Assembly (NCBI GenBank): GCA_035583445.1
Contig: DATEYD010000041.1
Span: 1-58,953, forward strand
Length of the DNA: 58,953 bases
Direction: 5' to 3'
DNA from: Minisyncoccota bacterium
Lineage (GTDB): Bacteria; Patescibacteriota; Minisyncoccia; 2-02-FULL-40-12; GWA2-44-9
Part shown: one piece after another, positions 8,848-51,917 of the stretch
How positions within the stretch are numbered: position 1 is the stretch's first letter
Layout: each line of letters starts with the position of its first letter
The notes under the pieces: model-generated
The model's input: only the letters and a program-made list of their open reading frames with translations
Told to the model about the DNA's origin: nothing
Databases searched by the model: none
Position numbers and translations under genes: made by a program

Positions 8848-8932
8848 GCTCCCGTGGAGGAACTGGCAGACTCGCCGCCCTTAGGAGGCGGTGCCGTAAG
8901 GCGTGGGGGTTCAAATCCCTCCGGGAGCACCA
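8848..8932 (+). tRNA. tRNA-Leu(TAG), CCA encoded
   Basis: Acceptor GCTCCCG/CGGGAGC, anticodon arm CCGCC-CTTAGGA-GGCGG, long variable arm TGCCGTAAGGCGT, T loop TTCAAAT, 3' ACCA. Confidence 0.88.
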
Positions 8933-8935
8933 AAC

Positions 8936-8964
8936 ACAAAGGACCCGCTGTGCGGGTCCTTTGT
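8936..8964. terminator. 13-bp hairpin between tRNA-Leu (+) and the pilin operon (-), likely a bidirectional terminator
   Basis: ACAAAGGACCCGC-tgt-GCGGGTCCTTTGT. Confidence 0.55.
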
Positions 8965-8981
8965 CATGAATCGATGGGATA

Positions 8982-9344
8982 CTAGCCGATCTGACCGCCG
9001 CGCTCCACTAACGCTGCGATGGAGTTGACAATCAAGCCAACGGCGAGGATCGCGGCGATGCCGATCGCTGCGTTCTTCATAATCTTACCGCCCTCCTCCG
9101 GCTGGTTCATTGCATACCGGATGCCGCCGTACACGAAGTAGGCGACGCCAAGGATGACTGCGACCGTCATGATCCAGTTCACAACTTGTCGGATGATCAC
9201 CAGTACGCTGGAGCCGGTCAGGACCGGGCCTCCGCCGAACGGATTCACCGGGTTGAAGAATTGGGCCAATGCAACTGCCGGAACCAATACAGCCGCCAGG
9301 GTTGCACCCGTCACTAGCACATTCTTGATGGTTTCTCGTTTCAT
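8982..9344 (-). CDS. VirB2/TrbC-like pilin-type small membrane protein, paralog 1
   Basis: 120 aa. Signal peptide ...VPAVALA-QF, then two hydrophobic helices separated by a short charged loop (YGGIRYAMNQPEEGGKIMKN). Strong AAGGAGGTG SD. Confidence 0.6.
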   Translation of the reverse strand: MKRETIKNVLVTGATLAAVLVPAVALAQFFNPVNPFGGGPVLTGSSVLVIIRQVVNWIMTVAVILGVAYFVYGGIRYAMNQPEEGGKIMKNAAIGIAAILAVGLIVNSIAALVERGGQIG

Positions 9345-9359
9345 GGGTGCACCTCCTTT

Positions 9360-9623
9360 CTAACGTAATATCCGCGTGGGATTCTCTCCAATGGCTGCCA
9401 GGGTATTCACGATGATACCAACCCCGAAGATGACCAGACCGCCGATGATTGCCTTGATGAGGGCCGACTTCGCGGCCGCGAATTCGGTGTCATTGCCCCG
9501 CGACATCACCATCCGGACGCCGGCCCAGACGATGAACCCGATGACAATCAGGGTGGCGGCGACCCAGAAGATGTCGACGATATCGCCGATGAGCCGAACG
9601 ACATTTTGGAGAGTGATGACCAT
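9360..9623 (-). CDS. VirB2/TrbC-like pilin-type small membrane protein, paralog 2 (no signal peptide)
   Basis: 87 aa. Same two-helix core (FIVWAGVRMVMSRGNDTEFAAAKSALIKAIIGGLVIFG), clearly similar to paralog 3. Confidence 0.55.
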   Translation of the reverse strand: MVITLQNVVRLIGDIVDIFWVAATLIVIGFIVWAGVRMVMSRGNDTEFAAAKSALIKAIIGGLVIFGVGIIVNTLAAIGENPTRILR

Positions 9624-9656
9624 GTCTAGGGCAATAATAGCATATAGGGCGCAATA

Positions 9657-9983
9657 TCAACCCCCAATGCTTTCCACAGCTCCCTGCACCGAATCGACGA
9701 TGACGTACGCCCCGAAGATGATGACCGCTCCCAGGAGGGCCAGGAGCAACCCTTTGCGGGCAGCACTGAACTTCGTCGAATCCCCCTTCGACATCACCAT
9801 CCGTAAGCCGTACCAGACAATGAAACCGACGGCCGCAAATTCGCCCACCTGGAGCAGGATCTTCACGAGCGCATAGACAATCGCAATGAGCCGGTTATAG
9901 GAAATGCCGCCGGTCTCCCCCAGGGGCGTCGCTTGCGCGAGCATGAGCGGAGCAGTTGCCCACATGCGTCGGAGGGTCTTCAT
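9657..9983 (-). CDS. VirB2/TrbC-like pilin-type small membrane protein, paralog 3
   Basis: 108 aa. Signal peptide ...LMLAQA, core FIVWYGLRMVMSKGDSTKFSAARKGLLLALLGAVIIFG. Confidence 0.6.
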   Translation of the reverse strand: MKTLRRMWATAPLMLAQATPLGETGGISYNRLIAIVYALVKILLQVGEFAAVGFIVWYGLRMVMSKGDSTKFSAARKGLLLALLGAVIIFGAYVIVDSVQGAVESIGG

Positions 9984-10342
9984 TGTCCCAGGTTCAGAAT
10001 GCTGCGGATCAGGTCCACAAACCCTCCACCAATGAAGATGACGACAAGGCCGATCGTCGTATAGAGGAGCGCCTTCTTCGCCTTTTGGATATTCTCCGGC
10101 TTTGCGCCAGCGGTCAGATACAGAAATCCGGCATAAATATAGAGGACCGCGGCAATGGGAATCGCAAGCCGCTCGAGCTGGCCAGCAAGCTTCTGAACAA
10201 GTTGTCCGAGATCTTCGACGCCGAGGGGGTTGTCTATCTTATCCGAAAATCCCTGTGCGGCGGCAACGACCGGCAGGAGCGCGGTCATGAGAATTGCGTG
10301 TGCTTTGAGTCGTCGCATTGATGGCATTATCTTATGCGCCAT
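9980..10342 (-). CDS. VirB2/TrbC-like pilin-type small membrane protein, paralog 4
   Basis: 120 aa. Signal peptide ...VVAAAQG, core IYAGFLYLTAGAKPENIQKAKKALLYTTIGLVVIF. 4-nt overlap with the next gene. Confidence 0.55.
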   Translation of the reverse strand: MAHKIMPSMRRLKAHAILMTALLPVVAAAQGFSDKIDNPLGVEDLGQLVQKLAGQLERLAIPIAAVLYIYAGFLYLTAGAKPENIQKAKKALLYTTIGLVVIFIGGGFVDLIRSILNLGQ

Positions 10343-10922
10343 GCCGTCTGTCCAGGAGAAGGCTTACGCCGCGGATGATGAGGATCCCCGTTGCCGCCAG
10401 CGCCAGACCCATCAATGCCGCTCCTATGCGCTTCCCGATGCTGCCCCCTGCGGCAATAGAGGCTGTCTGCTGGACCGCAGCGTACGAGCCACAGTCAACG
10501 GGACAATTCGATGACATCTCACCGTACTGGCTTTCACAGACATTGTCTTCATCACAAACGCGGCTCCCTTGCAGATCGATCGTGAGTATAAGCGCTCCTT
10601 GCGGGTCAATGACCTGAGCCGCCGTCCCATTGGGCTGATACCGTACGGGAACGTTCGTGGCGGTACCCGACAGGTCGAAGTATTGATGCGCAACGGATTG
10701 GTCGCGGGGTCCAAGAATGATGACACTCCATGATCCGACGCCGCGGGGCTCGTCGCCGGTCGTGAGCTCATATCTTCCGACTATTGGCGACTCCCCTTGT
10801 TGCGTGAAGGTGAACTGGTAGAGGAAATTATGATTGGCCCAAAACTCCTCCTCGGTCACCTGCGCAAACGCGCCGACAGGAACGAGCAGGATCAGGAGGA
10901 ATAAAATGATTCGGAGGCTCAT
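10332..10922 (-). CDS. secreted protein with C-terminal membrane anchor, unknown function
   Basis: ATG at 10920-22 overlaps the upstream TGA (ATGA). Signal peptide MSLRIILFLLILLVPVGAFAQ, Cys cluster CDEDNVCESQYGEMSSNCPVDCG, C-terminal TM plus basic tail. Confidence 0.6.
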   Translation of the reverse strand: MSLRIILFLLILLVPVGAFAQVTEEEFWANHNFLYQFTFTQQGESPIVGRYELTTGDEPRGVGSWSVIILGPRDQSVAHQYFDLSGTATNVPVRYQPNGTAAQVIDPQGALILTIDLQGSRVCDEDNVCESQYGEMSSNCPVDCGSYAAVQQTASIAAGGSIGKRIGAALMGLALAATGILIIRGVSLLLDRRHGA

Positions 10923-12067
10923 GGTTTGAGTATTGCTGCACATGCGGCAACTTTCGGGGCATATTTCCGAGTTTCAGAATATCCGCCGCCGTCTCGTTTT
11001 GCATTACATACCGTATGCCCACGATCATCCCATAGGCACTCCCATTTCCTTAATGGGCCACTTCCGCAGGTATTGGTTTTCCCCTGACAGCTGACGCTGA
11101 CAAGGCACGCCTCTCTCCCGTTGTAGTTCGCAGCAAGGTGCCGGGGATCTGAACCGCACGTTCCAACTAAGGAATTCAGGTAGGCGGCGGCGAGGCAAAT
11201 GCTTTTTTCCCAGTTTGCCTCGCTCAGCAGCCAACCAGCATCGATATCCGTGAGTTTCTGCGTGCCATCAGGCTGTTGCGTAAATATCCCACACTGGTAT
11301 CGATACATATTCGCCGTGCTTGGTAGTAACTGCATCGGCCCATACGCGCCCTTCCCACTCTCGAGGTTCGATCCGCAGCTCGACTCATGGATCATGATCG
11401 ACTCAAGGAGTCCGGCAGTAGCGACGCCACCGGCATATTTCCTGAAGATGTTCTCGTCCTTCAGGAGCTTCCGTATGTTGTTGCACGGTTTGCACGCCAC
11501 GTTGAGGTTCGCGGCTGTACCACAGAGAGGGACACTAGCGTCGGAGCATGTTTTCCCGAATTCCGCTGACATGGCGGGTGCCCCTGCCGGTGGTTGGATT
11601 GCAGGTTCGGACGAAAATTCGGTATCGATCTGACTGATCGTCGCGAGCCCTGCAGGGCAGGTCAGCTGAAACCACGGATCCCCTTCGGTACCCCCACCCA
11701 GCCCCTTGATCAGGAAGTTCGTCGCCGTCCAGGAGATGAGGATGATCCCGACGCCGATGAGGGTGTTCTTCAGATACTGCTTGCCTCGGGAGAACATCAC
11801 TGGATTCCCACCGCCCAGGAGCATCATGCCTCCCGCGAGGACCACCATGAACGCCGCGATGGGACCGGTGACGCCGAACAGGACGAGGTCGATGATGTTC
11901 TTCCCGGTCTGGAACAGGTGGCACGGTGTACACAGGTCAGTATCCGTCTTGCCACACGGCACGACCGGGATCCATGAAACCGCGGACGCAAACGTCGGAA
12001 GAAGGAACAACACCGCGAGCATCGCGGCGAGCATCAATCGTGTGGTTGTCGACGTTGGAAACCGCAT
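10919..12067 (-). CDS. fusion protein: N-terminal VirB2-like pilin module plus C-terminal lytic transglycosylase (SLT/VirB1-like)
   Basis: 382 aa. Signal peptide, PCG..C..C motif and two TM helices resembling the neighbouring pilins. C-terminal SLT motifs IMIHESSCG (catalytic Glu-Ser), AYGPMQL and AANYNG. Confidence 0.7.
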   Translation of the reverse strand: MRFPTSTTTRLMLAAMLAVLFLLPTFASAVSWIPVVPCGKTDTDLCTPCHLFQTGKNIIDLVLFGVTGPIAAFMVVLAGGMMLLGGGNPVMFSRGKQYLKNTLIGVGIILISWTATNFLIKGLGGGTEGDPWFQLTCPAGLATISQIDTEFSSEPAIQPPAGAPAMSAEFGKTCSDASVPLCGTAANLNVACKPCNNIRKLLKDENIFRKYAGGVATAGLLESIMIHESSCGSNLESGKGAYGPMQLLPSTANMYRYQCGIFTQQPDGTQKLTDIDAGWLLSEANWEKSICLAAAYLNSLVGTCGSDPRHLAANYNGREACLVSVSCQGKTNTCGSGPLRKWECLWDDRGHTVCNAKRDGGGYSETRKYAPKVAACAAILKP

Positions 12068-12080
12068 TGCATGCTCCGCC

Positions 12081-13415
12081 TTAACGGCGGGACGACATCA
12101 GCACTGAAACCTTCGCCTCGGCATCTTCAAGAGCATCGCGAACACTGGATCTGCCAAAATTCACCGCATCGATCATGTCGGCAAAGATGGTCTCGAGCGC
12201 GATATTGTCCACCTGGTACCACGAGCGCGCATTGAGCGCCTGCTCAGCGAAAACGCCGATCGCGGGATCCGCCTGCTGCTGCTGGATGTAGTCGCGCCGC
12301 GCCGACGGGCGTCCGGCCAGCCCGATGTAGAAACCAGCACCCTCCCCTGCGGTCAGGTAATGGGCGAGTCTCCATGCGGCATACGGACTCGGGGATCCCT
12401 TGGAGACGGTGAATGCCCAGTAGTTCGCGTACGTGCGTACGTCGCTCGACGTGATCTGTGGTACCGGTGCGACGCCGAAGTCCATGCGCGGCGCCTTCTC
12501 GCGGATCATTTCCGCTTGGTGCTGGTAGTTGATGATCATCGCCGTCTTTCCCGAGGTGAACGCGTCGATGTTGTTGTCCTGGCTGTCATTCCAGGTATAG
12601 ACCTCCTTCTGGGGATTCGCAAAATCCGTATAGAAGGTCAACGCGGTCGCCCCGACCGGCTGGTTGTCCACGGAGCGGCTGAAAGTCGCTTCGGTCCGCT
12701 CGTCATCGGTCATCCGCACGCCCGATTGGAGCATGAGCATCATGAGGATGTCGGTCGAGCGGTTGATGTTTCCCGTTGTCCCCATCGCCACGCCCGAGCG
12801 CGTGATGTTGCGGCTCTGGTCATACAGCGTGATCTTCTTCACCGCATCCTGGAAATCGGTCCAGAGCCTGGGCGGCGTGGCGACGCCCGCGCCGGACAGC
12901 ATGTCGCGGTTGTAGTAGAGCGCGAGCGTGTCGACGTACAGCGGCATCGCATAGATATCCTCCCCGGCGACCAGGTCCGCATAGGCAACATCGACGAACA
13001 AGTCCCGATACTGACGTACGGTCATAAGCGCCGTGTTCGTGTCTGGGAACCGATTCGGTAGCGGTTGGATCTTGTCCGCGTACCGCGGCAGCCAGGTGTT
13101 GTGCATCATGAACACATCGGGTCCCTCTCCTGCCGCCTGCGCATTGAGCAGTCGGCGCTCATAGTCGGCGAACGGGATCATCTCATAGGTCACGTTGACA
13201 TCCGCATTCGCTTTCTCGAAAGCGGTGATGGCGTCGTCGAATACGGCAAAGTCATCGAACACGCCCCATACCAACAATTCTGCGGGCTGTCCGCCTCCCC
13301 CACCGCCGGACTGGCTGATGATGAAAATGATGGCGATGAAGACCGTCAGCGCGATGAACCCACCGAGGATGTAGGTCATCTTCCGTGAGTCGGTCAGGAA
13401 TGCGGCTATGTTCAT
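12081..13415 (-). CDS. ABC-transporter-type extracellular solute-binding protein (family 1), no permease or ATPase nearby
   Basis: 444 aa. N-terminal TM anchor plus Gly-rich linker. LLVWGVFDD..., MMHNTWLPRY... typical of sugar-type SBPs. Confidence 0.7.
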   Translation of the reverse strand: MNIAAFLTDSRKMTYILGGFIALTVFIAIIFIISQSGGGGGGQPAELLVWGVFDDFAVFDDAITAFEKANADVNVTYEMIPFADYERRLLNAQAAGEGPDVFMMHNTWLPRYADKIQPLPNRFPDTNTALMTVRQYRDLFVDVAYADLVAGEDIYAMPLYVDTLALYYNRDMLSGAGVATPPRLWTDFQDAVKKITLYDQSRNITRSGVAMGTTGNINRSTDILMMLMLQSGVRMTDDERTEATFSRSVDNQPVGATALTFYTDFANPQKEVYTWNDSQDNNIDAFTSGKTAMIINYQHQAEMIREKAPRMDFGVAPVPQITSSDVRTYANYWAFTVSKGSPSPYAAWRLAHYLTAGEGAGFYIGLAGRPSARRDYIQQQQADPAIGVFAEQALNARSWYQVDNIALETIFADMIDAVNFGRSSVRDALEDAEAKVSVLMSSRR

Positions 13416-13957
13416 GGCTTGGTGAAGATCAATACGATGTAGTATGGGCCGCCGTCGACTTCCCGATCGAACGTCGCCCCCTGTTCTTCGGCCAATTGCT
13501 GGAACTCCTCCTTCGTCGTGCGGAAATCATCAGAAGGCCCAAATCCTACTGCCCCCTTCTTCCAATCCATGATCACGAGCCTCCCGCCCGGTTTGAGGAT
13601 GCGCACCGCTTCACGGATGATCGTGTCCTTCTTCTGCGATTGGAAGAGGATGTTTGCCAAAAGCGAGAGATCGAGTGTCCGGTCAGCGATCTGCGTGCTT
13701 CCAGCGACCTCAAGATCCGCGCGGATCGTGCGGATGTTCCCCAATCCCTGCGCTTCGCTCTTCGTCATCACCGACTGCAGCGGTTCCTGCATGACGTCGA
13801 CCGCCGCGACGGACCCCGTCGGCCCCACCGCACGGGCAAGCTCGATACTGAAATATCCCGAGCCGCAGCCCAGATCGGCCACGTGCATGCCCGGAGTCAC
13901 CCCGAGAGCCGCGACGACTTTTCGCGTATCCAGAAAACCACCAGGACCGGTAACCAT
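13412..13957 (-). CDS. class I SAM-dependent methyltransferase
   Basis: 181 aa. Motif I VADLGCGSGYF. ATGA overlap with the SBP gene. Confidence 0.8.
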   Translation of the reverse strand: MVTGPGGFLDTRKVVAALGVTPGMHVADLGCGSGYFSIELARAVGPTGSVAAVDVMQEPLQSVMTKSEAQGLGNIRTIRADLEVAGSTQIADRTLDLSLLANILFQSQKKDTIIREAVRILKPGGRLVIMDWKKGAVGFGPSDDFRTTKEEFQQLAEEQGATFDREVDGGPYYIVLIFTKP

Positions 13958-13992: not shown

Positions 13993-14016
13993 GAAAAGCG
14001 GGGGTTGTGCCCCCGC
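13991..14016 (-). terminator. intrinsic terminator after the 84-aa ORF
   Basis: Minus strand GCGGGGG-cacaa-CCCCCGC followed by TTTTCTT. Confidence 0.6.
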
Positions 14017-20830: not shown

Positions 20831-20903
20831 GGGGGAGTAGCTCAGCGGTTAGAGCACGAAGCTTATACCTTCGCGGTCCTAGGTTCGAATCCTAGCTCCC
20901 CCA
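20831..20903 (+). tRNA. tRNA-Ile(TAT)
   Basis: Acceptor GGGGGAG/CTCCCCC, D arm GCTC-AGCGGTTA-GAGC, anticodon arm CGAAG-CTTATAC-CTTCG (positions 34-36 = TAT), T arm CTAGG-TTCGAAT-CCTAG, discriminator A. Confidence 0.8.
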
Positions 20904-20907
20904 CCCG

Positions 20908-22388: not shown

Positions 22389-22662
22389 TGCCGCGGGAGG
22401 GAATTGAACCCCCGACGCCAGCCTCTTCCGAAGCTGAGTTGGACTATATCATCCTCCGTTCCGGAGGTCGGGCGCTGATGTGGGGTTATTGTTGGGACTC
22501 ACCCACTAGTCTCTACACCTTCTCCGCCACCAATGCCCGGCGGAGCTTGGCTCGGGATTGCTTCGTTCGAAGGTTTCCCCGAGTTCACCCGATTTTCAAT
22601 CCGCATTCCTGCGGAAGGCCCCAAAGATTTAGGGCTGCGCTCTACCACTGAGCTACCGCGGC
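22389..22662 (-). tRNA. tRNA gene interrupted by a group I intron. After conceptual splicing it reads as tRNA-Phe(GAA).
   Basis: 5' exon 22662-22631 (GCCGCGG TA GCTC AGTGGTA GAGC G CAGCC CT). 3' exon 22428-22389 (GAAGA GGCTG GCGTC GGGGG TTCAATT CCCTC CCGCGGC A). Joined, they give a 72-nt cloverleaf. Confidence 0.75.
22429..22630 (-). ncRNA. group I self-splicing intron (IC3-like, 202 nt, no ORF)
   Basis: P1: GCCCU at the exon end pairs with GGGGC, with G.U at the splice site. P10: UCUUU pairs with GAAGA. The intron ends in G. Core strings ACUCGGGGAAACCU, GCAAUCCCGAGCCAAGC, GAAGGUGUAGAGACUAG (rc of 22506-22522) and AUAGUCC. Confidence 0.75.
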
Positions 22663-37085: not shown

Positions 37086-39206
37086 ATGCGATTCCGTATG
37101 CCCACGCGCGTACGAGTCCGTCTTCCCCGCCGCGGTCGCACCCCGTGGCGTTCTTGGGTTCGCTCGGTCCTCGGTCTTGGGCTCTGGGTCGCCGTGATCG
37201 GCGTCATCGGTGTCTCCCTCTTCATCCTCGACGCCCGTCGTTCCCTGCCCGACCCCGATTCCATCGTGTCTCGACAGGTCAAGGAATCGACCAAGATCTA
37301 TGATTATACCGGAGAGGTTGTGTTGTATGACATCTACGACGAGGAACGGCGCACCGTCGTCCCGCTCGATCGGATCAGTGAGAACCTCCGCGAGGCGACG
37401 GTTGCCGTTGAGGATGCGCGGTTCTATGAGCACCGCGGGTTCGATTGGAAGGGGTTCATCCGTTCGATCGTCACAAACCTGAAGCAGGGATACGGCGCGG
37501 GAGGAGGGTCAACCATCACCCAGCAACTCGTGGGAAACGCCCTGGTGGGCCGCCAGAAGACACTGAAGCGGAAGGTACAAGAGCTTATCCTTGCCCTCGA
37601 GGTGGAGCGACGTTTCTCGAAGAATGCCATCCTTGAGATGTATCTCAACCAGATTCCATACGGATCCAACGCCTATGGCGCCGAGGCGGCCGCGCAGACG
37701 TTCTTCGACGTCCCCGCGGCAGACCTCTCTATTGCCCGGGCAGCGCTGTTGGCAGCGCTCCCCCAACGTCCGTCATACCTCTCTCCGTACGGGTCGCACG
37801 TCGACGAACTCTTGGCGCGCAAAGACTTCATCCTGACCCGGATGAATGAGCTTGGGCTGATCACTCAGTCGGAATACGAGAACGCGCGCATCGAAGAAGT
37901 GGTGTTTGCACAAGGATCAGTCGATATCACCCCCCAGCATTTCGTTGAGATGGTCCGTGAATACCTGACAGAAAAGTACGGAGAGGACCTTGTGCAGAGT
38001 AGTGGGTACAAGATCATCACCACCCTCGATGCGGACCTCCAACAGAAGGCTGAAGAATTAGTCACGCATTACGCAGAGATTAATACGGAGAAATACAAAG
38101 CGACCAACGCTGCGCTCGTTGCGACTGATCCGCGTACCGGCGAGGTGCGGGCGCTCGTCGGGTCCGCCGATTATTTCAATGTCGAGAATGAAGGCAACTT
38201 CAACGTGGCGACTGCACGGCGACAACCTGGTTCGGCTTTCAAGCCGTTCGCGTATGCTGCCGCCTTTGCGAAGGGATATCCCGACAGCACCATCCTCTGG
38301 GACGTGAAGACTGAGTTCAACCAGTATTGCCCCGCTGATGCGACCGCAACGAAGGATCGCTTCGGATTGGACTGCTACCACCCCCAGAACTACAACGGCG
38401 GGTATAGTGGTCCGGTCACGATGCGCCAATCGCTTTCCCGATCTCTGAATATCCCGTCCGTAAAAACCCTCTACCTTGCCGGTGTCGACAATGTGGTATC
38501 TCTGGCCACACGGATGGGTATCAGCACCCTAGGGAACAACACCTGGGGCCTCTCGCTTGTCTTGGGGGGCGCTGAAGTCCGGCTGGTTGATATGGTGTCT
38601 GCCTACGGTGTATTCGCTGCAGATGGTATACGGACCCCCTGGGGCCTTATTAAGCGCGTTGAGGGACCAGATGGGGGCATCCTCGAAGAGCGTAAGGTCA
38701 ACCCTGAGCGGGTACTAGAGGCACAAACCGTACGTCTTGTGACCGACATCCTCTCCGACAACAACGCCCGCACACCAGTCTTCGGCGTGAATAGCTCCCT
38801 TTACATACCCGGAAGGAGTGTTGCCGCAAAGACTGGTACTACCCAGGAGAACCGCGATGCGTGGGTGGTGGGCTATACCCCATCGTTGGTGGTTGGTGTA
38901 TGGGCTGGGAACAACCACAACCAATCCATGACCGCAGCCGGAGCTGGTATCAGCGCCGCTGGTCCTCTCTGGAACGCATTTATGCGTGCTGCGCTAAGTA
39001 ACACTCCCGTCGAAAGCTTCCCGAAACCCGACCCTGTTGTTGTAGGGAAGCCGATGCTGAATGGGATGTGGGCCTCGCCGGAGTATCCCCAACAACACAC
39101 CGTTCTGTTTTATGTCGATCGATCGAACCCGTTGGGACCGATCCCGACATCACCTGAAGCTGATCCCCAGTTCCAAAATTGGGAGTGGGCGGTGGGGAAT
39201 CGCTAA
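37086..39206 (+). CDS. class A penicillin-binding protein (glycosyltransferase GT51 plus transpeptidase)
   Basis: ATG at 37086 inside ORF 36852..39206. TM anchor. GT51 motifs AVEDARFYEHRGFD, GGSTITQQL, RKVQELILALEVE. TP motifs SAFKPF, SRSLN, KTGTT. Confidence 0.9.
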   Translation: MRFRMPTRVRVRLPRRGRTPWRSWVRSVLGLGLWVAVIGVIGVSLFILDARRSLPDPDSIVSRQVKESTKIYDYTGEVVLYDIYDEERRTVVPLDRISENLREATVAVEDARFYEHRGFDWKGFIRSIVTNLKQGYGAGGGSTITQQLVGNALVGRQKTLKRKVQELILALEVERRFSKNAILEMYLNQIPYGSNAYGAEAAAQTFFDVPAADLSIARAALLAALPQRPSYLSPYGSHVDELLARKDFILTRMNELGLITQSEYENARIEEVVFAQGSVDITPQHFVEMVREYLTEKYGEDLVQSSGYKIITTLDADLQQKAEELVTHYAEINTEKYKATNAALVATDPRTGEVRALVGSADYFNVENEGNFNVATARRQPGSAFKPFAYAAAFAKGYPDSTILWDVKTEFNQYCPADATATKDRFGLDCYHPQNYNGGYSGPVTMRQSLSRSLNIPSVKTLYLAGVDNVVSLATRMGISTLGNNTWGLSLVLGGAEVRLVDMVSAYGVFAADGIRTPWGLIKRVEGPDGGILEERKVNPERVLEAQTVRLVTDILSDNNARTPVFGVNSSLYIPGRSVAAKTGTTQENRDAWVVGYTPSLVVGVWAGNNHNQSMTAAGAGISAAGPLWNAFMRAALSNTPVESFPKPDPVVVGKPMLNGMWASPEYPQQHTVLFYVDRSNPLGPIPTSPEADPQFQNWEWAVGNR

Positions 39207-40291
39207 CCGCGCAGCGGCATGACGATGTAGACGAGTTTTAATCCGTCGTCGGGGCGAAGTACGAACGGGCTTCCCTTTCCGGTGAATTCCAATATCACCT
39301 TTTCGGTTGGGATGATTTTTAATCCGTCCAAAAGGTAGTGGTAGTTTAGGGAGATATCGAATGCGTCCCCCTTCAGGTTCGCCTCAAGATCTGCGACCCC
39401 CTCCCCCTTTGCTGAGTGCTTCCCGGAAACCGTCAATTCTTTTTCAGTGCATGCTAGTTTGACGTCTGAGATACTTGACGAGAACAGCGAGGCTATATGG
39501 ATAGCGTTGGCAAAATCTTCGCGGCGCACCAGGACTTTTGCGAGGGAACGATCCGGGACTACCTTCTGGTAGTCTGGGAATTTCCCGTCAATCAATCGGG
39601 ATATCACATCAAGCCCTTCGTGGGTAAATAAAATTTGGTTATCCGCGATCCTTGCGGTCACCTCGCCGCGCACACCACCAAAAACACGGATCAATTCCAT
39701 GATGGTGGTTCGGGGAATAATAACCACTCGGTCTCCTTTTTGTGGTTCTGGAATGACGTGTTCGACTAACCGAAAACTATCGGTCGCAGCAATGGTGATG
39801 CCTTGCTTGTTAAAACTCAATAAGGCTCCGGCCAATTCGGGTCGTGATTCGGATGTCGCAATCGAATCCATCGCGCTCACACAAAGTGTGTGTAGTTGTT
39901 CTATAGGAAACACATACTCAACCCCAGACGTGATGGATGGGATAATGGGGTATTCCGCCGGGTCAAAACAAAGGATGGTGGTCTTTGAAGATCCTGCCGA
40001 AGCCGATAATACATTCGCTGCAACCCTCAAGGTGACTGCGTCCGACCGGGAAGCGCGCACTAAGTCGGTTAAAAGCCGTGCAGGTACCGCGACCGAGCCC
40101 TCTTTAGTCACCTTGGCTCCAACCGCGACCGTAATACCCACCTCAAGATTTGTCGCGGACAGGTGGAGTTGCCCACCTGCGGCTCTCATGAGGATGTTCC
40201 CCAAAATAGGGAGTGTTGCGTTCTTGGCCGCAATTTTCTCGGTTGAGAGAAGTGCTCGTTGTAGGTTTTCCCGATGAATGACGACGTCCAT
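39203..40291 (-). CDS. dnaN: DNA polymerase III beta sliding clamp
   Basis: 362 aa. ...AAKNATLPILGNILMRAAGGQLHLSATNLEV... Immediately downstream of dnaA/oriC. Confidence 0.92.
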   Translation of the reverse strand: MDVVIHRENLQRALLSTEKIAAKNATLPILGNILMRAAGGQLHLSATNLEVGITVAVGAKVTKEGSVAVPARLLTDLVRASRSDAVTLRVAANVLSASAGSSKTTILCFDPAEYPIIPSITSGVEYVFPIEQLHTLCVSAMDSIATSESRPELAGALLSFNKQGITIAATDSFRLVEHVIPEPQKGDRVVIIPRTTIMELIRVFGGVRGEVTARIADNQILFTHEGLDVISRLIDGKFPDYQKVVPDRSLAKVLVRREDFANAIHIASLFSSSISDVKLACTEKELTVSGKHSAKGEGVADLEANLKGDAFDISLNYHYLLDGLKIIPTEKVILEFTGKGSPFVLRPDDGLKLVYIVMPLRG

Positions 40292-40506
40292 GGTTATAGT
40301 AATAATATTATTTTATAGAATATTACTCTTATTATTATGTCTGTGGATTTGTGGATGGATACCCGAAATACTACGCCCTACCTGAAGAATGAGTGATTTT
40401 CGTTTTCGCATGTCTTGTGGATAGATTGGTGGTTGGTGTGGGTTATTTCTGTGATTTTTCTCGGATATCACAATAAATAGCTTTTCTTCCACACACGACA
40501 AACACG
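40292..40506. other. chromosomal replication origin (oriC) in the dnaA-dnaN spacer
   Basis: AT-rich unwinding-type stretch at 40293-40340. DnaA-box-like 9-mers TGTGGATTT (40342-50), TGTGGATGG (40350-58), TGTGGATAG (40416-24) and a weaker TCTTCCACA (40485-93). Confidence 0.75.
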
Positions 40507-41898
40507 TTATTCGAATGAATCATACACACGTTGCCGGATCATGGTGAGCTCGTTCTTGAGTGGCTCGTCGGCCTGTTCTTCTCTTTTAATCTTCTCGCAC
40601 GCATGGATCACAGTGGAGTGGTCGCGACCACCAAGTTTTTGGCCAATATCTGGGAAGGAAAGCTTAATTTCCTCACGAAGTAAATACATGGCGACTTGGC
40701 GTGGCTTTACCACTTCCTTCTTCCGGCTTCGCTTGGTGAGGTCGGCTGGGGAAATATTATAGAAGTCCGCAACCGTCTTCAGAATTATCTGCGGTGACGT
40801 CTTTCGGTATGGGACGGCGAGGTATGCGTTGAGGATGTTTTTGGTCTCCTTAAGGTCGGGTACACGGTTGTAGATTTGAGAAAGCGCGATAACCCGGTTG
40901 AGGGCCCCCTCGAGTTCTCGGATGTTCTTTTGTATGTGGGTGCCGATATACGAAAGCACCTCATCAGAGAAGACAACGCCTTTTTCTGCGGATTTAGCCT
41001 TTAGGATAGCGACCCGTGTTTCGAAATCCGGAGCGTTGATGTCCGCGAGCATTCCCCCAACCAAGCGTGACAAGAGGCGTTCTTCGATTGCTGGAATTGC
41101 TGTGGGTGGACGGTCGGATGTCATCACGACCTGGCGATTCTTGTTGTGGATTTCATTAAAGATGGTGAACACGATTTCCTGCATCTTCTCTTTTCCTGCG
41201 ATGAATTGGATGTCATCAATAATAAGAAGGTCGAGACCCGAGTAAAGGTTCTTGAGGTCTTCGATGGTGCGGTTGCGGATTCCCTCGACAATCGCCGATA
41301 CCATCTTTTCGCCTGATGCGTACAACACCTTCCGCTCAGGAGCCTTTTCAAGCACCGCGTTGCCGATTGACTGCACGAGGTGGGTCTTCCCTAACCCCAC
41401 CCCACCATAAATGAAAAGCGGGTTATACGGCTTCGGGAGGTTCCCGACGATGCACTGGGAAACGCTTTGCGCACACGCGAACGCCAATTCATTTGCCGAC
41501 CCCACGATAAAGGAGTTGAATGAATACTTTTTGTTAAGTGATGTCGTCTTATCGATCTCCTGGTTCTGCTCCCCGCTCGTCTGCTCCTGGAGGTCTCGAT
41601 CGACGATCATCTTCGAGAAGTCTTGGCGGATCGGTTCCGGCTTCGGCTGCCCGATAATATAGCGAACCTCACGGATCTCATTGGAGAGTTTCCGGATCGA
41701 GTAGATGATTTGCTTGTTAAACTTATTCTCGAGCCACTCCTTCACAAACCCATTCGGCACACTGACCGTGACCGAATTCTGATCCCGAGAAACGATCGAT
41801 GTATTCTTAAACCAGGTTGTGAAGTGCGCTTTTGAAAGCGAAAGCTCCATATCACAGAGCACCGCCTTCCAGATTTCTTCGGGTGTTGCCGGGAGCAT
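40507..41898 (-). CDS. dnaA: chromosomal replication initiator protein DnaA
   Basis: 463 aa. Walker [11 protein letters not shown], Walker [11 protein letters not shown]-terminal DNA-binding ...[11 protein letters not shown]. Confidence 0.96.
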
Positions 41899-42061
41899 GT
41901 GTGCGCGTAAACGGATGAATCGTGTCGCAAGTATATCCTACACCCCCACCCCCTCAAGCGCCGTTCAACACCCGATTCGTTGATAGGATGTGTATAACAG
42001 GTGGAAAAAGTGGCGTAAATATTGACGCGTAGAAGAAAGCGTAGTAAGCTGTTCCGGCACC

Positions 42062-42199
42062 ATGAAGATTACACGCTACCGACCAAAGAAGACGAAGCGA
42101 CAGCGGAAGCACGGCTTTCTGAGCCGAATGCAAAGCAAAACCGGACGAAACGTGCTCGCCCGGCGCCGCGCAAAAGGCCGAAAGCGGCTGACGATCTAG
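42062..42199 (+). CDS. rpmH: 50S ribosomal protein L34
   Basis: My own translation: [45 protein letters not shown] (45 aa). Below the ORF-track cutoff. Classic position upstream of rnpA. Confidence 0.9.
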
Positions 42200-42236
42200 C
42201 CAGAATCGCCCGCCGGGCGATTTTGGTATTTGTATC

Positions 42237-42563
42237 ATGACTACACCACACAATGACCCGAAGCGGGAGACCAGAGCAAACCGCCCGGCCGCCTCTTTCC
42301 CATTCTTCACCCTCAGAGTTCTTAAAGGTAAGGGGCGACCGACTATTCAGGTTGCGGTTCCTGTCCGGATCGAAGCTCGGGCTACGGGACGCAATCGAAT
42401 CAAGCGGCAAGTCGCCGAAGCGCTCCGGGTGATCATGACGGAACACCACATCCATTCGCATGTCGCCGTGCTGGTCCGTCGTGCCGACATTCCTCGTGGC
42501 CAGGTGCTTCGCAGCGCTATTTTTGAGCTCTTCAAAGAATCGGGTATGATAGAACAACGATGA
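42237..42563 (+). CDS. rnpA: ribonuclease P protein component
   Basis: 108-aa basic ORF with RNR motif (ATGRNRIKRQV). Lies between rpmH and yidD. Confidence 0.85.
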   Translation: MTTPHNDPKRETRANRPAASFPFFTLRVLKGKGRPTIQVAVPVRIEARATGRNRIKRQVAEALRVIMTEHHIHSHVAVLVRRADIPRGQVLRSAIFELFKESGMIEQR

Positions 42564-42781
42564 AACGGATCATCCTCGCGTGTATCTCGTGGTATCAGGC
42601 GTACGGAACTCCGGCACTCTCGTCGCTCCTTCCGTTTGGGATGATCTCCGGTTGCCGCCAAGTCCCCACCTGCTCCGTGTACGCACGACAGGAAATCGAA
42701 ACGAACGGAGTTTTCCGGGGCGGCCTCCGCGCATGTATTCGCGTTCTTCGATGTAACCCCCTTTTCTCACGTGTTCACTGA
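42560..42781 (+). CDS. yidD: membrane protein insertion efficiency factor YidD
   Basis: 73 aa. ISWYQ...GCRQVPTCSVYA. Confidence 0.88.
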   Translation: MKRIILACISWYQAYGTPALSSLLPFGMISGCRQVPTCSVYARQEIETNGVFRGGLRACIRVLRCNPLFSRVH

Positions 42782-43442
42782 AATCATCATCCGCCCCCTT
42801 CTGAACCTCACCGTCTCGATCTACGGGACGATTGGATTCGCCGATTTCGGGCTGACGGTCGTCCTTGTGACCTTGGTCGTGCGGCTTGCTGTCCTCCCCT
42901 TCTCACTGAAGACGGCGCGGTCGCAGCGCGAGATGGCGAAGCTCACTCCACAACTCGAGCAGATCAAAATACAGCATAAAGGGAACATGCAAGCGCAGTC
43001 GGAGGCGACTATGCGCCTATACAAGGAGCACGGAGTCAACCCGCTGGCCGGCTGTCTCCCGCTCCTCATCCAGCTTCCGATCCTGTTCGGGATGTACCGT
43101 GTGTTCCTCGATATCTTCAAACCAGAAACGCTCAACCTTCTCTACGGCTTTGTGCCGAATCCTGGGACGATCAATCAGATCGCGTTCGGAGTCCTCGATA
43201 TCAGCACCGCGAGCCCCGTTCTGGCAGTGCTCGCGGGTGCCATCCAATTCATCCAAGCCCGTATGACACAGCAAATGGCGGGCAGCAAGTCACCGACGGC
43301 TTCGATGAATAAGCAGATGATGTACCTCTTGCCGGCGATGATTGTGGTGATCGGATGGTCCCTGCCCGCAGGGCTTCCGTTATACTGGATTGTGACCACA
43401 TTAGTATCGATCGGAGAGCAGTTGCATGTCCGACGCTCCTGA
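42771..43442 (+). CDS. yidC: membrane protein insertase YidC (short Oxa1-type form)
   Basis: GTG start. 223 aa. ...VRLAVLPFSLK...MRLYKEHGVNPLAGCLPLLIQLPILFGMY. Confidence 0.9.
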   Translation: MFTEIIIRPLLNLTVSIYGTIGFADFGLTVVLVTLVVRLAVLPFSLKTARSQREMAKLTPQLEQIKIQHKGNMQAQSEATMRLYKEHGVNPLAGCLPLLIQLPILFGMYRVFLDIFKPETLNLLYGFVPNPGTINQIAFGVLDISTASPVLAVLAGAIQFIQARMTQQMAGSKSPTASMNKQMMYLLPAMIVVIGWSLPAGLPLYWIVTTLVSIGEQLHVRRS

Positions 43443-43918
43443 TGCATACTGGCGCCATGCAAACCCCGGAACAGAGCCTCGATACCGTCGTCCGAACCCT
43501 CCTAGGGTTCTTTGCTATCCCCTACGACGATGTAGTTGTTCATGCCGCGGAGCCCGGAGGCCGATTGACGGTGTCCCTGACCGCACCCGAAGGGAATGTG
43601 CTCATCGGCAAAGGCGGCCAGAACCTCAAAGCGCTCGAACACGTCGTTCGGATGATGATGGCTCGCCAGCACCCCGAACAAGCGCGCGGGCTCATCGTCG
43701 ATATTAACGATTACCGTCAGGAGATGGCCACGGAACTCGCAACAAGCACGCGCGTGATTGCGGAACGAGTGCGTCAGACGCGCCAACCCGAGGCATTACG
43801 TCCGATGACCGCGTACGAACGGCGGATCGTGCACACTGAATTGGCATCCTTTTCTGATTTGACCAGCGAGAGCGTCGGACAAGACCCGCATCGGCGGGTT
43901 GTGATCCGGCCCCTCTAG
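43442..43918 (+). CDS. jag: Jag/KhpB-like RNA-binding protein (KH plus R3H)
   Basis: ATG overlaps the yidC stop (TGATG). ATG at 43457 is an alternative. LIGKGGQNLKALEHV (KH) and AYERRIVHTEL (R3H). Confidence 0.8.
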   Translation: MHTGAMQTPEQSLDTVVRTLLGFFAIPYDDVVVHAAEPGGRLTVSLTAPEGNVLIGKGGQNLKALEHVVRMMMARQHPEQARGLIVDINDYRQEMATELATSTRVIAERVRQTRQPEALRPMTAYERRIVHTELASFSDLTSESVGQDPHRRVVIRPL

Positions 43919-45045
43919 AAGCTCACCATATGGACGCGGCGATCGAAGAGATCGATGAACGCCGCACGAGTGCCGGACGAGGAGATGACCGGGGAATACA
44001 CACCAACCCGGTCTTCGTGAGTTGGAATAGTATCAATCAGAACACCCGATCCCGCATCAATACTCGCGAGGGTGTCATTTGTGGCCGCAAGGGCAGATCC
44101 CTGACTCACGGAGGCGTCCTGCGGAATGCCACACACTAACGATGCACCATCAGGCGCCCATGCGCACTTGCGGGCGCTCGTCTGTTCGCTCATGGTCCGC
44201 TGCAACAAGGTCGACGGATCCAGCACGGCAACGACCCGCTTGGCGGATTGATCGAAGTACGTGGCAAGGACGGATCCCTGCCGAGAGATGGTGAATTCGA
44301 GATTTTGCTTATTCGAAAGTAAGGTGGCGATATCCCCATCGAGCGATACCACAACAAGATCGGTTGATGAGGTGCCCGTCCTCCAGACCGTGAGTATGAT
44401 CGCCTGCTCCCCTTTCCATGCCATGTCCGTGACGCCAAGACGGGTCCGGAGGATCGTCCGCTCGTCCGATCCGTCGACATCCGCAACTCGTAGGACTGTG
44501 CCGGAATCAGTTCCTGGTCCGATGTATGCGATCCGCGAACCGTTAGAAGAAACCGCCAGATGATCGGCGTTCTCGAGGGTATGCCCGCTCCCCGTCCGAT
44601 AGTCGTAGAGCTGGTAGCGTCGGCCAGAGCGTGCATCCTCGATGATCAGGAATGCCTGTTCAGCGCCAGGAACCCAGATGCCATCGGTGAATCCAGGCAC
44701 CGCGATGTCGGATATAGTCCGAATGACCCCCGTCCGAAGATCCCCCTCGTACGCGCGGCCGGATTGCACGTCGAACCAGCGCACCGAGTCGCGGCTGAGC
44801 CCGGGTGCGAGGCCGGTAGCGGCGGTGTCGGAGAGAAGCGTGTCAACGACGCGTGGAGCATCACGTGGTTCGGGCGTGGAAGAACCATCGACGTGCTCGG
44901 CGATGGTGGCGGTTCCGCCATTCCCCAAGAATGCTCCCACAATAACAGCGAGCGCGACGAACGGAATGACGAGGAGTAGAAGAAACGTTGAGCGCCGCAA
45001 GCTCGAGCGTTGGGAAAGGAGGTTCGGTTGTTGTCCGAGAAACAT
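43915..45045 (-). CDS. membrane-anchored beta-propeller-like (TolB/WD40-like) protein, unknown function. Last gene of the T4SS-like operon.
   Basis: 376 aa. N-terminal TM FLLLLVIPFVALAVIVGAF. Repetitive beta-strand-rich sequence with recurring ..DG/SG.R.A... blades. Confidence 0.5.
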   Translation of the reverse strand: MFLGQQPNLLSQRSSLRRSTFLLLLVIPFVALAVIVGAFLGNGGTATIAEHVDGSSTPEPRDAPRVVDTLLSDTAATGLAPGLSRDSVRWFDVQSGRAYEGDLRTGVIRTISDIAVPGFTDGIWVPGAEQAFLIIEDARSGRRYQLYDYRTGSGHTLENADHLAVSSNGSRIAYIGPGTDSGTVLRVADVDGSDERTILRTRLGVTDMAWKGEQAIILTVWRTGTSSTDLVVVSLDGDIATLLSNKQNLEFTISRQGSVLATYFDQSAKRVVAVLDPSTLLQRTMSEQTSARKCAWAPDGASLVCGIPQDASVSQGSALAATNDTLASIDAGSGVLIDTIPTHEDRVGVYSPVISSSGTRAAFIDLFDRRVHMVSF

Positions 45046-45047
45046 GG

Positions 45048-46028
45048 CTAGGTGGCGAACGCGATGTCTTGGGTCGTCGACATGATGGCGATCTCTTCTT
45101 GGGTGTTTTGCAGAATCTCCTCCTCGCGCTGGCGAGACAGAATGTCGACCTCGTAGTCTTCGACGATCGCGTAGCTCTCCTCGGCCTTCTGGAGTAGGTA
45201 TTGCACTTCGAAACGCTGGTAGCGAGCGAGCGCGTCCACGACTGGGTCATAGCCGGCAAACGCGAGGCGGGCGTTCCGATGCGCCGTGTATTGCTTGAGC
45301 ACAACCCGAACGACCTGACCAAGATACATAGGAAGGGCGTCAATGACCGGGACGAGCTCAGCGATCTGTACGGCAACCGTTTCCGCGATGAATGTGCGGA
45401 TATAGGCTTTATACCGATAGGCAACTGTATTCGGAATCGGTTCGACTTTTGGAGCGCCTGGGTCGCGCAGTGCCGGTCCCAGCCGTTCTAGGAGCGCCCG
45501 ATATTCCTTCTCGTACCTCTCCCGTGCTTTGTGAATGGCCTCGACGCCTCGATTGATGCGATCGATTCGCCGTGCGATGAACACGCAGATGAGCGGGATC
45601 GCCCAGGAGATGAGCCAGCCGGCGTCAACGATACTGAGGAGATCCGCGAACCCTGCAATCAGCAGGGCTCCCAGGAAAAGGAACAGCGAGGTTCGTCGCG
45701 TTTGACGGTGAAGATTGCGTCGCTCTTCTTCCCGTTCACGCGACTGCCGAAGATATATCTGGTTCGCCTTCTGGTACCGACGGTATGCAACGACGGTATC
45801 CTGCCGCGCCTCCTCGTAGGTCAGGGCCTCGCGCTGTCGTGGTTGCGCCTGTGCTCGCCGGCTCCGTGGTTGTTGAACAAGGGGTGCTGCGGTTGTCAGT
45901 ACAGGTACCCGAGGTGCCGTCGGAGACGGTGCGGGTTGTGCGACCGATACCGAAGGCGCGACATCCCGAAGCGCGGGCGAAGGCTCGCGTGGTGCCGCTT
46001 GAGGGTTTGCTTGGGGTGCGTCTGCCAT
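45048..46028 (-). CDS. hypothetical two-TM protein with a Pro/Ala-rich N-terminal region (T4SS-like operon)
   Basis: Met at 46028 lies 2 nt after the VirB4 stop (the ORF opens at 46058). TMs LFLFLGALLIAGFADLLSIV and LISWAIPLICVFIA. Confidence 0.5.
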   Translation of the reverse strand: MADAPQANPQAAPREPSPALRDVAPSVSVAQPAPSPTAPRVPVLTTAAPLVQQPRSRRAQAQPRQREALTYEEARQDTVVAYRRYQKANQIYLRQSREREEERRNLHRQTRRTSLFLFLGALLIAGFADLLSIVDAGWLISWAIPLICVFIARRIDRINRGVEAIHKARERYEKEYRALLERLGPALRDPGAPKVEPIPNTVAYRYKAYIRTFIAETVAVQIAELVPVIDALPMYLGQVVRVVLKQYTAHRNARLAFAGYDPVVDALARYQRFEVQYLLQKAEESYAIVEDYEVDILSRQREEEILQNTQEEIAIMSTTQDIAFAT

Positions 46029-46030
46029 GG

Positions 46031-47776: not shown

Positions 47777-48414
47777 GATGCGGGGGTCTTTGCAGGTTCG
47801 GGCAGGTTGGGGTTGTAGAGGTCGCGCAGGAGCTTCGAGATCTCGGCATCGTTCAGCACGCTGCCGGTCAATCCCATACCCGACAGCCCGCCGATGATCA
47901 GATCGGCGCGTTGCATCATCTGCGTCTTTGCGACCGCAAGCTGTTCGGGAGAGAGCGTCGAGGTGGTGACAGCCTTCTTCTTGCCCAAGAACGACTGGAA
48001 GAATCCCCCACCCTTTTTTCCCGTGGGTAATTGAACGGTGAACGGCAGCACCACATAGAACTGTTTGGACATGATGTTCGCAAGCTCGGAAAGCTCGCCG
48101 ACGAAGCGCGCGTATTCACCGGCCTGGACCTTCAGGAGTTCGTTCGTTTGCTTCTCTGCGGCGCTTCGGGCCAATGCGATGTATGTCGATACGTCGAATC
48201 GGCGGGACTGTATGACGATCTGGAACGGGAAATCTAACGAATTCAGGAATCCCTGGAACTGCTGGATGATCGCGTTCTGTTCGTCGGTCGAACGCAGCTC
48301 GAAGTTGATGGCGCTGATGCGGACAATGGCGCGCAAGGTGCTGTCCTTCAGGGTGATGACGCCGCTCCCGATGTCTGCGACGGGGACAAGCTCGGTTGTT
48401 GAGGGGGGTGGCAT
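47773..48414 (-). CDS. protein resembling the VirB4 N-terminal domain (apparent split VirB4)
   Basis: 213 aa. ...VPVADIGSGVITLKDSTLRAIVRISAINFELRSTDEQNAIIQQFQGFLNSLDFPFQIVIQSRR resembles the start of Gram-positive-type VirB4 proteins. Confidence 0.45.
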   Translation of the reverse strand: MPPPSTTELVPVADIGSGVITLKDSTLRAIVRISAINFELRSTDEQNAIIQQFQGFLNSLDFPFQIVIQSRRFDVSTYIALARSAAEKQTNELLKVQAGEYARFVGELSELANIMSKQFYVVLPFTVQLPTGKKGGGFFQSFLGKKKAVTTSTLSPEQLAVAKTQMMQRADLIIGGLSGMGLTGSVLNDAEISKLLRDLYNPNLPEPAKTPAS

Positions 48415-48416
48415 GG

Positions 48417-48725
48417 TTAGGGCTTCGGGAATTGCTCAGGGACCGTCTGCTTCGGGGTGAACTGGTACCGCTTGGCGCCGAAGATGTACGCGAGGAAGTA
48501 TGCGAAATAGTTCAGGAATGGCTGGTCATTGACCTTCAGGAACGCGAGAGCCGCGAAGAATCCTGCCGTCAGGAGCGCCAGAACGACGAAGAACAATCCG
48601 GGCAAGAGCATATACTCGACAACAACCATGCTAATGCCACCTGCGACGAAGAGGAACTGCTTGAGCGTGAACGGCCCAACGACCTTCGTTTCCGTCTCGA
48701 TGAATTGAGGAACCTGGAATCTCAT
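48417..48725 (-). CDS. PrgI/VirB3-like two-TM protein
   Basis: 102 aa. MRFQVPQFIETETKVVGPFTLKQFLFVAGG..., then two TM helices. Sits directly upstream of VirB4, as VirB3/PrgI genes do. Confidence 0.55.
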   Translation of the reverse strand: MRFQVPQFIETETKVVGPFTLKQFLFVAGGISMVVVEYMLLPGLFFVVLALLTAGFFAALAFLKVNDQPFLNYFAYFLAYIFGAKRYQFTPKQTVPEQFPKP

Positions 48726-49270: not shown

Positions 49271-49273
49271 GGT

Positions 49274-51916: not shown

Positions 51917-51917
51917 A

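Follow-up and report, generated by a model that had tools for sequence, protein, structure and literature searches.

A fixed set of four tandem VirB2/TrbC-like pilin paralogues and a pilin-transglycosylase fusion on a Patescibacteria chromosome

Tandem series of VirB2-like pilin genes are a documented hallmark of the Patescibacteria (candidate phyla radiation, CPR). In a recent survey, 383 assemblies yielded 441 arrays of 2-11 pilin genes (mean identity 25%), which were most abundant in Microgenomatia and Saccharimonadia, and VirB2-like pilins were found in 1,948 VirB4-bearing assemblies, being near virB4 in 1,135 (Quinonero-Coronel et al. 2025, PMC12102498). The same survey suggested host-range or antigenic variation as an explanation of the arrays. 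A series of predicted pilins lies inside the essential type IV secretion system (T4SS) cluster of Ca. Southlakia epibionticum ML1 (Wang et al. 2023, PMC10633639), and the six sequence-divergent VirB2-like pilins of this species are essential for survival (2025 FEMS review, PMC12857230). Among Gram-positive systems, the VirB2-like PrgF of pCF10 is essential and has been modelled as forming a tube on a VirB6 pentamer, and similar VirB2-like proteins occur in most T4SSs of this kind (bioRxiv 10.64898/2025.12.18.695078). Here, an array of four small pilin-like genes is described in a 58,953-nucleotide stretch of a Minisyncoccota bacterium (contig DATEYD010000041.1 of assembly GCA_035583445.1), which is called the window below. 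The array is probably, though by no means certainly, the pilin module of a Patescibacteria T4SS, a set of non-redundant subunits for a pilus built by VirB4 and VirB6.

The window is a stretch of a Patescibacteria chromosome, and its nearest relatives are labelled Ca. Yanofskybacteria and Paceibacterota. The genes of the array and the fusion gene that heads it are as follows.

10919-12067, minus strand, F, fusion protein of 382 aa (PF01464 at 34.4 bits, above the threshold of 21.3)
9980-10342, minus strand, P1, VirB2/TrbC-like pilin paralogue, open reading frame (ORF) of 120 aa
9657-9983, minus strand, P2, pilin paralogue, ORF of 108 aa
9360-9623, minus strand, P3, pilin paralogue, ORF of 87 aa
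8982-9344, minus strand, P4, pilin paralogue, ORF of 120 aa

F carries a fifth pilin module, and the whole is referred to as the four-plus-one set. The partner T4SS lies on the other side of the window, next to the replication origin.

43915-53609, minus strand, partner T4SS operon beside dnaA/dnaN, with VirB4, PrgI/VirB3-like and TrbL/VirB6-like genes and unannotated ORFs
46031-47776, minus strand, VirB4-like ATPase (NCBIfam CD1110-family, 348 bits against a cut-off of 325; monoderm type)
48417-48725, minus strand, PrgI/VirB3-like protein
49274-51964, minus strand, extended TrbL/VirB6-like protein of 896 aa
39203-40291, dnaN, replication origin region
40507-41898, dnaA, replication origin region

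All T4SS core genes of the window (VirB4, VirB3/PrgI and VirB6) are found in this dnaA-side operon, ~34 kb from the array. The operon is flanked by ksgA and begins directly beyond the origin region (39203-44000), where GC falls to 0.495 at 40-42 kb and the cumulative GC skew has its minimum at 42-44 kb. A T4SS adjoining dnaA, dnaN and ksgA is the arrangement described for Paceibacteria (PMC12102498). The window is chromosomal, with valS, gyrA, tsaD, uvrD and ten tRNA genes. A search with a local pilin family profile (hidden Markov model, HMM) showed no further pilin ORF in the window, the T4SS operon included, which leaves the array as the sole VirB2 candidate for this machine.

The array agrees with the published definition, i.e., tandem pilins of low identity (22-35%) in a Patescibacterium with VirB4 present (PMC12102498). 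In common with the other Patescibacteria arrays, including those of S. epibionticum and the "Sec-secreted array" of TM7x, it consists of tandem PF18895/PF04956 genes with ~25% identity, it is chromosomal, and it accompanies a monoderm-type VirB4/VirB3/VirB6 near oriC with no relaxase evident. It differs from them in being placed 34-36 kb from virB4 rather than inside the T4SS cluster, in being headed by a pilin-SLT fusion gene, in its Paceibacteria/Yanofskybacteria-type lineage and in being a fixed four-plus-one orthologous set, a point not addressed in the published survey. The first-pass annotation of this DNA, made from the letters alone, had placed the array ~32 kb from the VirB4 operon, which is close to the actual distance, and had considered both the distance and the multiplicity of pilin-like subunits unusual. 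Neither is an oddity: divergent VirB2-like arrays are already published for Patescibacteria (PMC12102498, PMC10633639, PMC12857230), and in ~40% of the assemblies that contain both virB4 and a pilin the two lie apart (PMC12102498). The array is an ordinary new example of the documented hallmark and no new kind of element, to which the four-plus-one organisation, the pilin-anchored SLT enzyme and the positional expression signals add modest refinements.

The four consecutive small ORFs reported in the first-pass annotation are present with the lengths given there, and the architecture proposed for them is seen in all four by alignment and hydropathy. Two hydrophobic helices and a short charged loop are common to P1-P4, helix 1 ends in an aromatic-x-G motif (YAG, WYG, WAG and YGG across P1-P4), and the pairwise identities are 22-35%. 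P2 and P3, for which a visible similarity had been claimed with exactly quoted peptides, are indeed 35% identical over 79 aa (BLASTP E 7e-19 in a small database) and still have direct repeats between them at the DNA level. P3 and P4 are 27% identical over 84 aa.

The locus is strongly conserved across the relatives. In every relative recovered, the order is gyrA, methyltransferase, solute-binding protein (SBP), F, an optional protein of ~200 aa and the pilins, and the pilin genes converge on hsp20, prsW, valS and tsaD. In 14/14 distinct genomes four pilin ORFs, no more and no fewer, come after F, and the best cross-genome match is found at the same position for 69/69 proteins. Orthologues are 43-58% identical and paralogues 26-33%. 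Compared with the nearest relative, P1-P4 have dN/dS values of 0.085-0.124, and F has 0.069. The four-plus-one set is ancient and fixed, and purifying selection acts on every position, each forming an orthologous group of its own. The duplication predates the divergence of these lineages, which are down to ~43% identical. The fixed set argues for non-redundant subunits, and not for interchangeable variants, in this clade; because they are kept 1:1 across genera, the four free paralogues probably have distinct roles.

The assignment to VirB2/TrbC-like pilins, proposed in the first-pass annotation, is borne out by the family models. PF18895 (Pfam T4SS_pilin, gathering threshold 26.6 bits) is passed by P1 (35.4 bits), P3 (38.5 bits) and P4 (30.7 bits). 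PF04956 (TrbC/VirB2, threshold 27.9 bits) is passed by P1 as the sole paralogue, with 34.0 bits over the full model length, and many P1 orthologues carry a precomputed PF04956 annotation. P2 remains under both thresholds (20.7 and 16.1 bits, respectively), and P3 and P4 have no PF04956 match in the Pfam scan. When profiles of the positional groups from the 14 genomes were aligned with each other by hhalign, all five modules, that of F included, proved mutually homologous, and the probabilities ranged from 94 to 99.5%, with the P2 and P3 groups at 99.5%; the paralogy is well beyond chance, and P2 joins the pilin family through this clear profile-profile homology to P3. In NCBIfam, P1, P2 and P4 gave weak, sub-threshold matches to monoderm conjugation pilin-like proteins (Mbov_0395 family, pLS20_p028). 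The small ORFs thus match pilin families rather than holins, and the PHROGs scan returned no match for P1-P4, holins included. Membership in a curated, Patescibacteria-rich pilin family is solid, whereas homology to classical VirB2 draws on the broad Pfam TrbC model and the architecture, its independent confirmation being weak.

The same two sides appear when the array is compared with the VirB2 T-pilin of A. tumefaciens, TrbC of RP4 and TraA of F. Like them, the array proteins are small, with two hydrophobic helices, a short charged loop and an optional long leader; in P1 the score exceeds the threshold of the Pfam TrbC/VirB2 model, and the order of SLT and then pilin genes echoes virB1-virB2. 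They differ in the lack of profile-profile similarity to six bona fide VirB2/TrbC proteins and of a significant fold match, in the monoderm cell without an outer-membrane core complex, and in having five modules instead of one. Nearer in cell type is PrgF_B2 of pCF10, a small two-transmembrane (TM) protein with a charged loop from a monoderm MPF_FATA-type T4SS, which is proposed to polymerise on a VirB6 pentamer. However, the Gram-positive T4SSs have one functional VirB2-like protein, next to virB6 and on conjugative plasmids, whereas four plus one chromosomal paralogues, distant from virB6 and with no evident relaxase, are found here.

F begins with a signal peptide, which is followed by a VirB2-like helical hairpin flanked by Cys residues, then by a disordered linker rich in Pro and finally by the SLT lytic transglycosylase domain. 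Its N-terminus matches PF18895 with E=0.005 in Pfam and with 5.6e-16 when the local pilin HMM is used. In the AF2 model of F (pLDDT 82.4), a signal helix, a hairpin (48-84/89-123), a linker (144-167) and a confident globular domain (170-380) are distinguished, and the best 46 PDB fold matches are all lytic transglycosylases (MltE, Slt, MltC, MltF). In an alignment of 29 homologues, E228 and S229 are invariant, and so are several cysteines beside the hairpin, which is flanked by the conserved C38, C46, C49 and C137. With SLT above threshold, the catalytic Glu conserved and a gene placed together with T4SS pilins, F is the predicted VirB1-like function of the locus. It resembles the VirB1-type transglycosylases, TraG of pIP501 and PrgK in the SLT domain with an invariant Glu-Ser motif, in the position directly before pilin genes and in being membrane-tethered with the enzyme outside. 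It differs from them in its anchor, a VirB2-like hairpin with flanking conserved cysteines, and in having no CHAP or LytM domain.

The F family comprises ~46 clusters, annotated solely as "transglycosylase SLT domain-containing protein". In the scan of species-representative genomes, F alone gave no match; an alignment-based rescan found homologues in metagenome-assembled genomes labelled Ca. Yanofskybacteria, Ca. Paceibacterota and Patescibacteria group. Close copies of the locus come from aquifer, sediment and soil metagenomes. Some F homologues (P0148-P0159) keep the pilin module and differ in the C-terminal part, where Pfam shows no SLT match.

In an exhaustive profile search, 64,489 representative clusters match the pilin family at E<=1e-3; with the limit set at E<=1e-10, 6,168 do so. 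The best-scoring members are single polypeptides with 3-16 tandem PF18895 modules ("poly-pilins"), as in the database proteins P0163, P0164, P0172, P0174 and P0176; for instance, 8 PF18895 repeats occur in one of 820 aa and 16 matched stretches in another of 1775 aa. Sequences were retrieved for P0163, P0164, P0172 and P0176, and all four are continuous. Such tandem fusions are topologically consistent, because each module should begin and end outside the membrane, and they suggest that adjacent modules may work side by side.

The expression signals of the array and its immediate downstream region are the following.

10326-10354, minus strand, promoter-like site TGGACA-17-GATAAT, its -10 box ending 7 nt before the ATG at 10318
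9634-9642, minus strand, extended -10-like box TGCTATTAT, candidate internal promoter, ending 10 nt before the P3 ATG
9350-9360, minus strand, strong Shine-Dalgarno (SD) sequence GAAAGGAGGTG for P4, the only strong one in the array
8936-8964, minus strand, intrinsic terminator hairpin 3' of P4, a 13-bp stem and then UGUUU (-27 kcal/mol, z-score -4.95)
8848-8932, plus strand, tRNA-Leu, convergent, facing the P4 terminator

These signals were compared over the related loci L005-L022 (14 genomes), and each paralogue shows its own arrangement. The P4 SD is kept at this position in all 14 genomes in the form GAAAGG(A/G)GGTG. The one claim of the first-pass annotation on sequence features that fails is that every paralogue has a strong SD, since this is true of P4 alone: P1 is preceded only by a weak GGA, no SD was found upstream of the P3 ATG, and the P2 ATG overlaps the stop codon of P1 (ATGA). 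P2 overlaps or abuts P1 in every related locus, an arrangement which suggests that P2 may be translationally coupled to P1. As for P3, 13/14 genomes have TCTGATATACT, or a variant close to it, with its end lying 6-10 nt ahead of the ATG, and the P1 counterpart in the relatives is TAGGATA(A/C)T, 6-9 nt before the ATG. The TGGACA-17-GATAAT site scored 10/12 matches in the promoter scan. At such spacing, a loosely defined -10 pattern is present at 1.2% of random positions in the window; this is the only background used, the genome-wide control for leaderless starts having been run on a crude greedy ORF set which includes shadow ORFs. From these conserved boxes we infer that internal promoters may give leaderless or near-leaderless mRNAs for P1 and P3.

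In the case of P1, the start is probably Met9 at 10318, as the -10 box lies 7 nt ahead of that ATG and close homologues begin there; the product would then have 112 aa, beginning MRRLKAHAIL. The mature part, from I-x-NPLG to IGGGFVDLIRSILNxGQ, is the best conserved of the set, and the AF2 model shows a helical hairpin (45-77/82-118, pLDDT 70.8). Signal-peptide-like leaders are found in P1 (ending AAA/QG) and P4 (ending ALA/Q). A leader in P2 is doubtful on its sequence, given the short hydrophobic region and the orthologues without leader. P3 has none, which agrees with the earlier remark that one paralogue lacks a signal peptide when it is applied to this 87-aa ORF; an in-frame TGA 33 nt upstream closes the frame, and a longer P3 ORF is thereby excluded. 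The P3 orthologues of three relatives (L010, L012 and L022) do have a leader, and many P1 orthologues begin 2-4 residues ahead of the invariant I-x-NPLG. Leaders have thus been gained and lost among the orthologues of P1-P4, and because they come and go, a cleavable leader is not essential for the hairpins.

P2 and P3 lie in one frame, divided by the TGA and 33 nt (9624-9659), and the same is seen in the closest relative. Stop-codon readthrough joining the two was considered and rejected, since the spacing and frame are not kept in more distant relatives and the GC of ~59% is unlike that of the known UGA-recoding CPR lineages. The shared frame is probably a coincidence stemming from a recent common ancestor.

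Upstream, the array continues into further co-directional genes.

10332-10943, minus strand, orf203, 203 aa: signal peptide, extracellular domain containing Cys, TM anchor at the C-terminus
12081-13415, minus strand, SBP_bac_1 solute-binding protein with an N-terminal membrane anchor
13412-13957, minus strand, methyltransferase
13998-14016, terminator-like site upstream of the methyltransferase

The pilin array is the tail of an overlapping string made up of the methyltransferase, the SBP, F, orf203, P1-P4 and the terminator. The pilin module fused to SLT and orf203, both in this string, had been overlooked in the earlier reading of the sequence; apart from the SD claim, what was observed there is real. 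orf203 overlaps both of its neighbours, has no family match in Pfam, NCBIfam or PHROGs, and is located between F and P1 in most relatives, being absent in four (L007, L020, L021 and L022). The methyltransferase and SBP genes, syntenic in all relatives, are probably in the same transcription unit as the pilin genes, because the gaps are only -4 nt between the two and 13 nt from the SBP to the F gene. The SBP gene is an orphan, with no adjoining ABC permease or ATPase gene.

Two further features lie in the tRNA-bearing part of the window. A group I catalytic intron (22419-22640, minus strand; Rfam 69.6 bits against a gathering threshold of 50) is located near a tRNA cluster, and the ORFs overlapping or flanking it have no Pfam match. 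A tRNA-Ile with the anticodon UAU is encoded at 20831-20905 (plus strand). Such a tRNA is uncommon in bacteria, most of which decode AUA through a lysidine-modified CAU tRNA.

If the array serves as the pilin module of the T4SS, P1-P4 would presumably form the pilus in the following manner. Each module would insert into the cytoplasmic membrane as a hairpin, exposing its two ends on the outer side and its charged loop to the cytoplasm, and a cleavable leader would be optional. The VirB4/VirB6 machine would extract them and polymerise them on the VirB6 platform, and the resulting short tube or pilus would cross the cell wall toward a host cell. F would hold its lytic transglycosylase outside the membrane at the assembly site by means of the flexible Pro-rich linker, opening the peptidoglycan. 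The free paralogues might act as shaft, base or adaptor and tip, or they might form an obligate heteropolymer; being the most conserved and the most TrbC-like, P1 is the likeliest core subunit. Expression would be set by position, with P1 and P3 behind internal -10 boxes (leaderless mRNAs), P2 coupled to P1 and P4 served by its strong SD. The poly-pilin fusions fit modules placed side by side with both ends outside.

Several observations weigh against this interpretation. No experiment in the literature shows a T4SS pilus in any Patescibacterium, and the sequencing runs which hold the locus are DNA metagenomes only, with no RNA run and no expression data. The Pfam scores of these short hydrophobic proteins are modest (30-38 bits). 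Each positional group, compared by hhalign with six annotated VirB2/TrbC proteins of alphaproteobacterial origin taken from MPF_T plasmids, reached 1-14% probability, which is not significant. Foldseek of the P1 model against the PDB gave no match with E<0.6 and none that is significant; the T-pilus (8exh_A) and the A. pernix conjugation pilus (8dfu) appear at E ~3 with TM 0.66 on target. A PDB sequence search with the P1 family profile returned only noise (viral fusion peptides). The helical hairpin is a non-diagnostic fold, and structure cannot confirm the pilin identity because the P1 model has no significant fold match. Finally, the pilin locus is away from virB4 and apparently co-transcribed with the SBP and methyltransferase genes, and another role is possible.

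One alternative is a membrane-resident complex without any filament. The subunits would then anchor or regulate the SLT enzyme for remodelling of the cell's own wall or for SBP-linked uptake, or they would be a non-polymerising part of the T4SS inner-membrane channel. Such a role would suit the distance of ~34 kb from virB4, the co-directional SBP and SLT genes, the lack of a significant structural or profile match to solved VirB2 pilins and the leaders that vary or are absent among orthologues. Electron microscopy, moreover, has shown no T4SS pilus in monoderm systems (bioRxiv 10.64898/2025.12.18.695078). On the other hand, the Pfam TrbC/VirB2 and T4SS_pilin matches are above threshold, and no other VirB2 candidate is present in the T4SS operon of the window. 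Members of this family lie inside the essential T4SS cluster in Saccharimonadia (PMC10633639, PMC12857230), and labelling of PrgF supports extrusion from the membrane in a monoderm T4SS (bioRxiv 10.64898/2025.12.18.695078). A complex without filament is on balance unlikely.

A bolder form of the pilus model is distinctly unlikely as well. According to this, the T4SS of this Paceibacteria clade would build an obligate heteromeric VirB2-type tube from a fixed set of five distinct subunits, with F co-polymerising through its hairpin and displaying its enzyme, on the flexible linker, outside the filament. The "enzyme-armed" pilus would drill through the host peptidoglycan, and the poly-pilins would reflect the same principle of side-by-side assembly.

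Variation of the pilus surface, as proposed in the literature for Patescibacteria (PMC12102498), must also be weighed. The paralogues would in that case be interchangeable, alternative major subunits which diversify the surface for different host strains or for evasion of recognition. Their low identity (22-35%) agrees with this, and a promoter-like box of its own for P1 and for P3 could permit differential expression. The conservation of the locus points the other way. The copy number is fixed at four in the 14 genomes, positional orthology is strict (69/69), dN/dS of ~0.1 gives no sign of diversifying selection, and the duplication is older than the split of these lineages (~43% identity). 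Fused multi-module polypeptides likewise argue for co-use and not for alternatives. The arrays of virB2-like genes in Bartonella and Anaplasma, in which several tandem genes also serve one T4SS, offer a comparison, but they are read as recent amplification for antigenic variation, whereas the set described here is ancient, 1:1 orthologous and under purifying selection. Interchangeable variants rank lower again and are considered improbable in this clade.

A lysis or antibacterial cassette, perhaps a prophage remnant in which holin-like or bacteriocin/immunity-like small proteins accompany a muralytic SLT effector, would account for small two-TM proteins adjoining a muralytic enzyme and for the matches of the SLT part of F to phage lytic tail/endolysin PHROGs (best 4.6e-10), but it is hardly credible, as P1-P4 and orf203 have no PHROGs match, no phage genes are nearby, housekeeping synteny (gyrA ... 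valS, tsaD) is conserved across genera, purifying selection on the locus is strong and Pfam places the small ORFs in pilin families.

Among monoderm-type systems, VirB2-like pilin arrays have been credited to the T4SS of Patescibacteria alone; this T4SS lacks a relaxase, and epibiotic growth depends on it in the single species tested. The question of its role is sharpened by the present locus in three ways: one clade keeps a non-redundant four-plus-one set, and not a variable family; a lytic transglycosylase anchored by a pilin module is physically linked to the array; and fused multi-module forms exist in the family. All three speak for a heteromeric structural machine rather than antigenic or host-range variation, and the locus offers defined targets for multimer modelling as well as for genetic work on relatives that can be cultivated.

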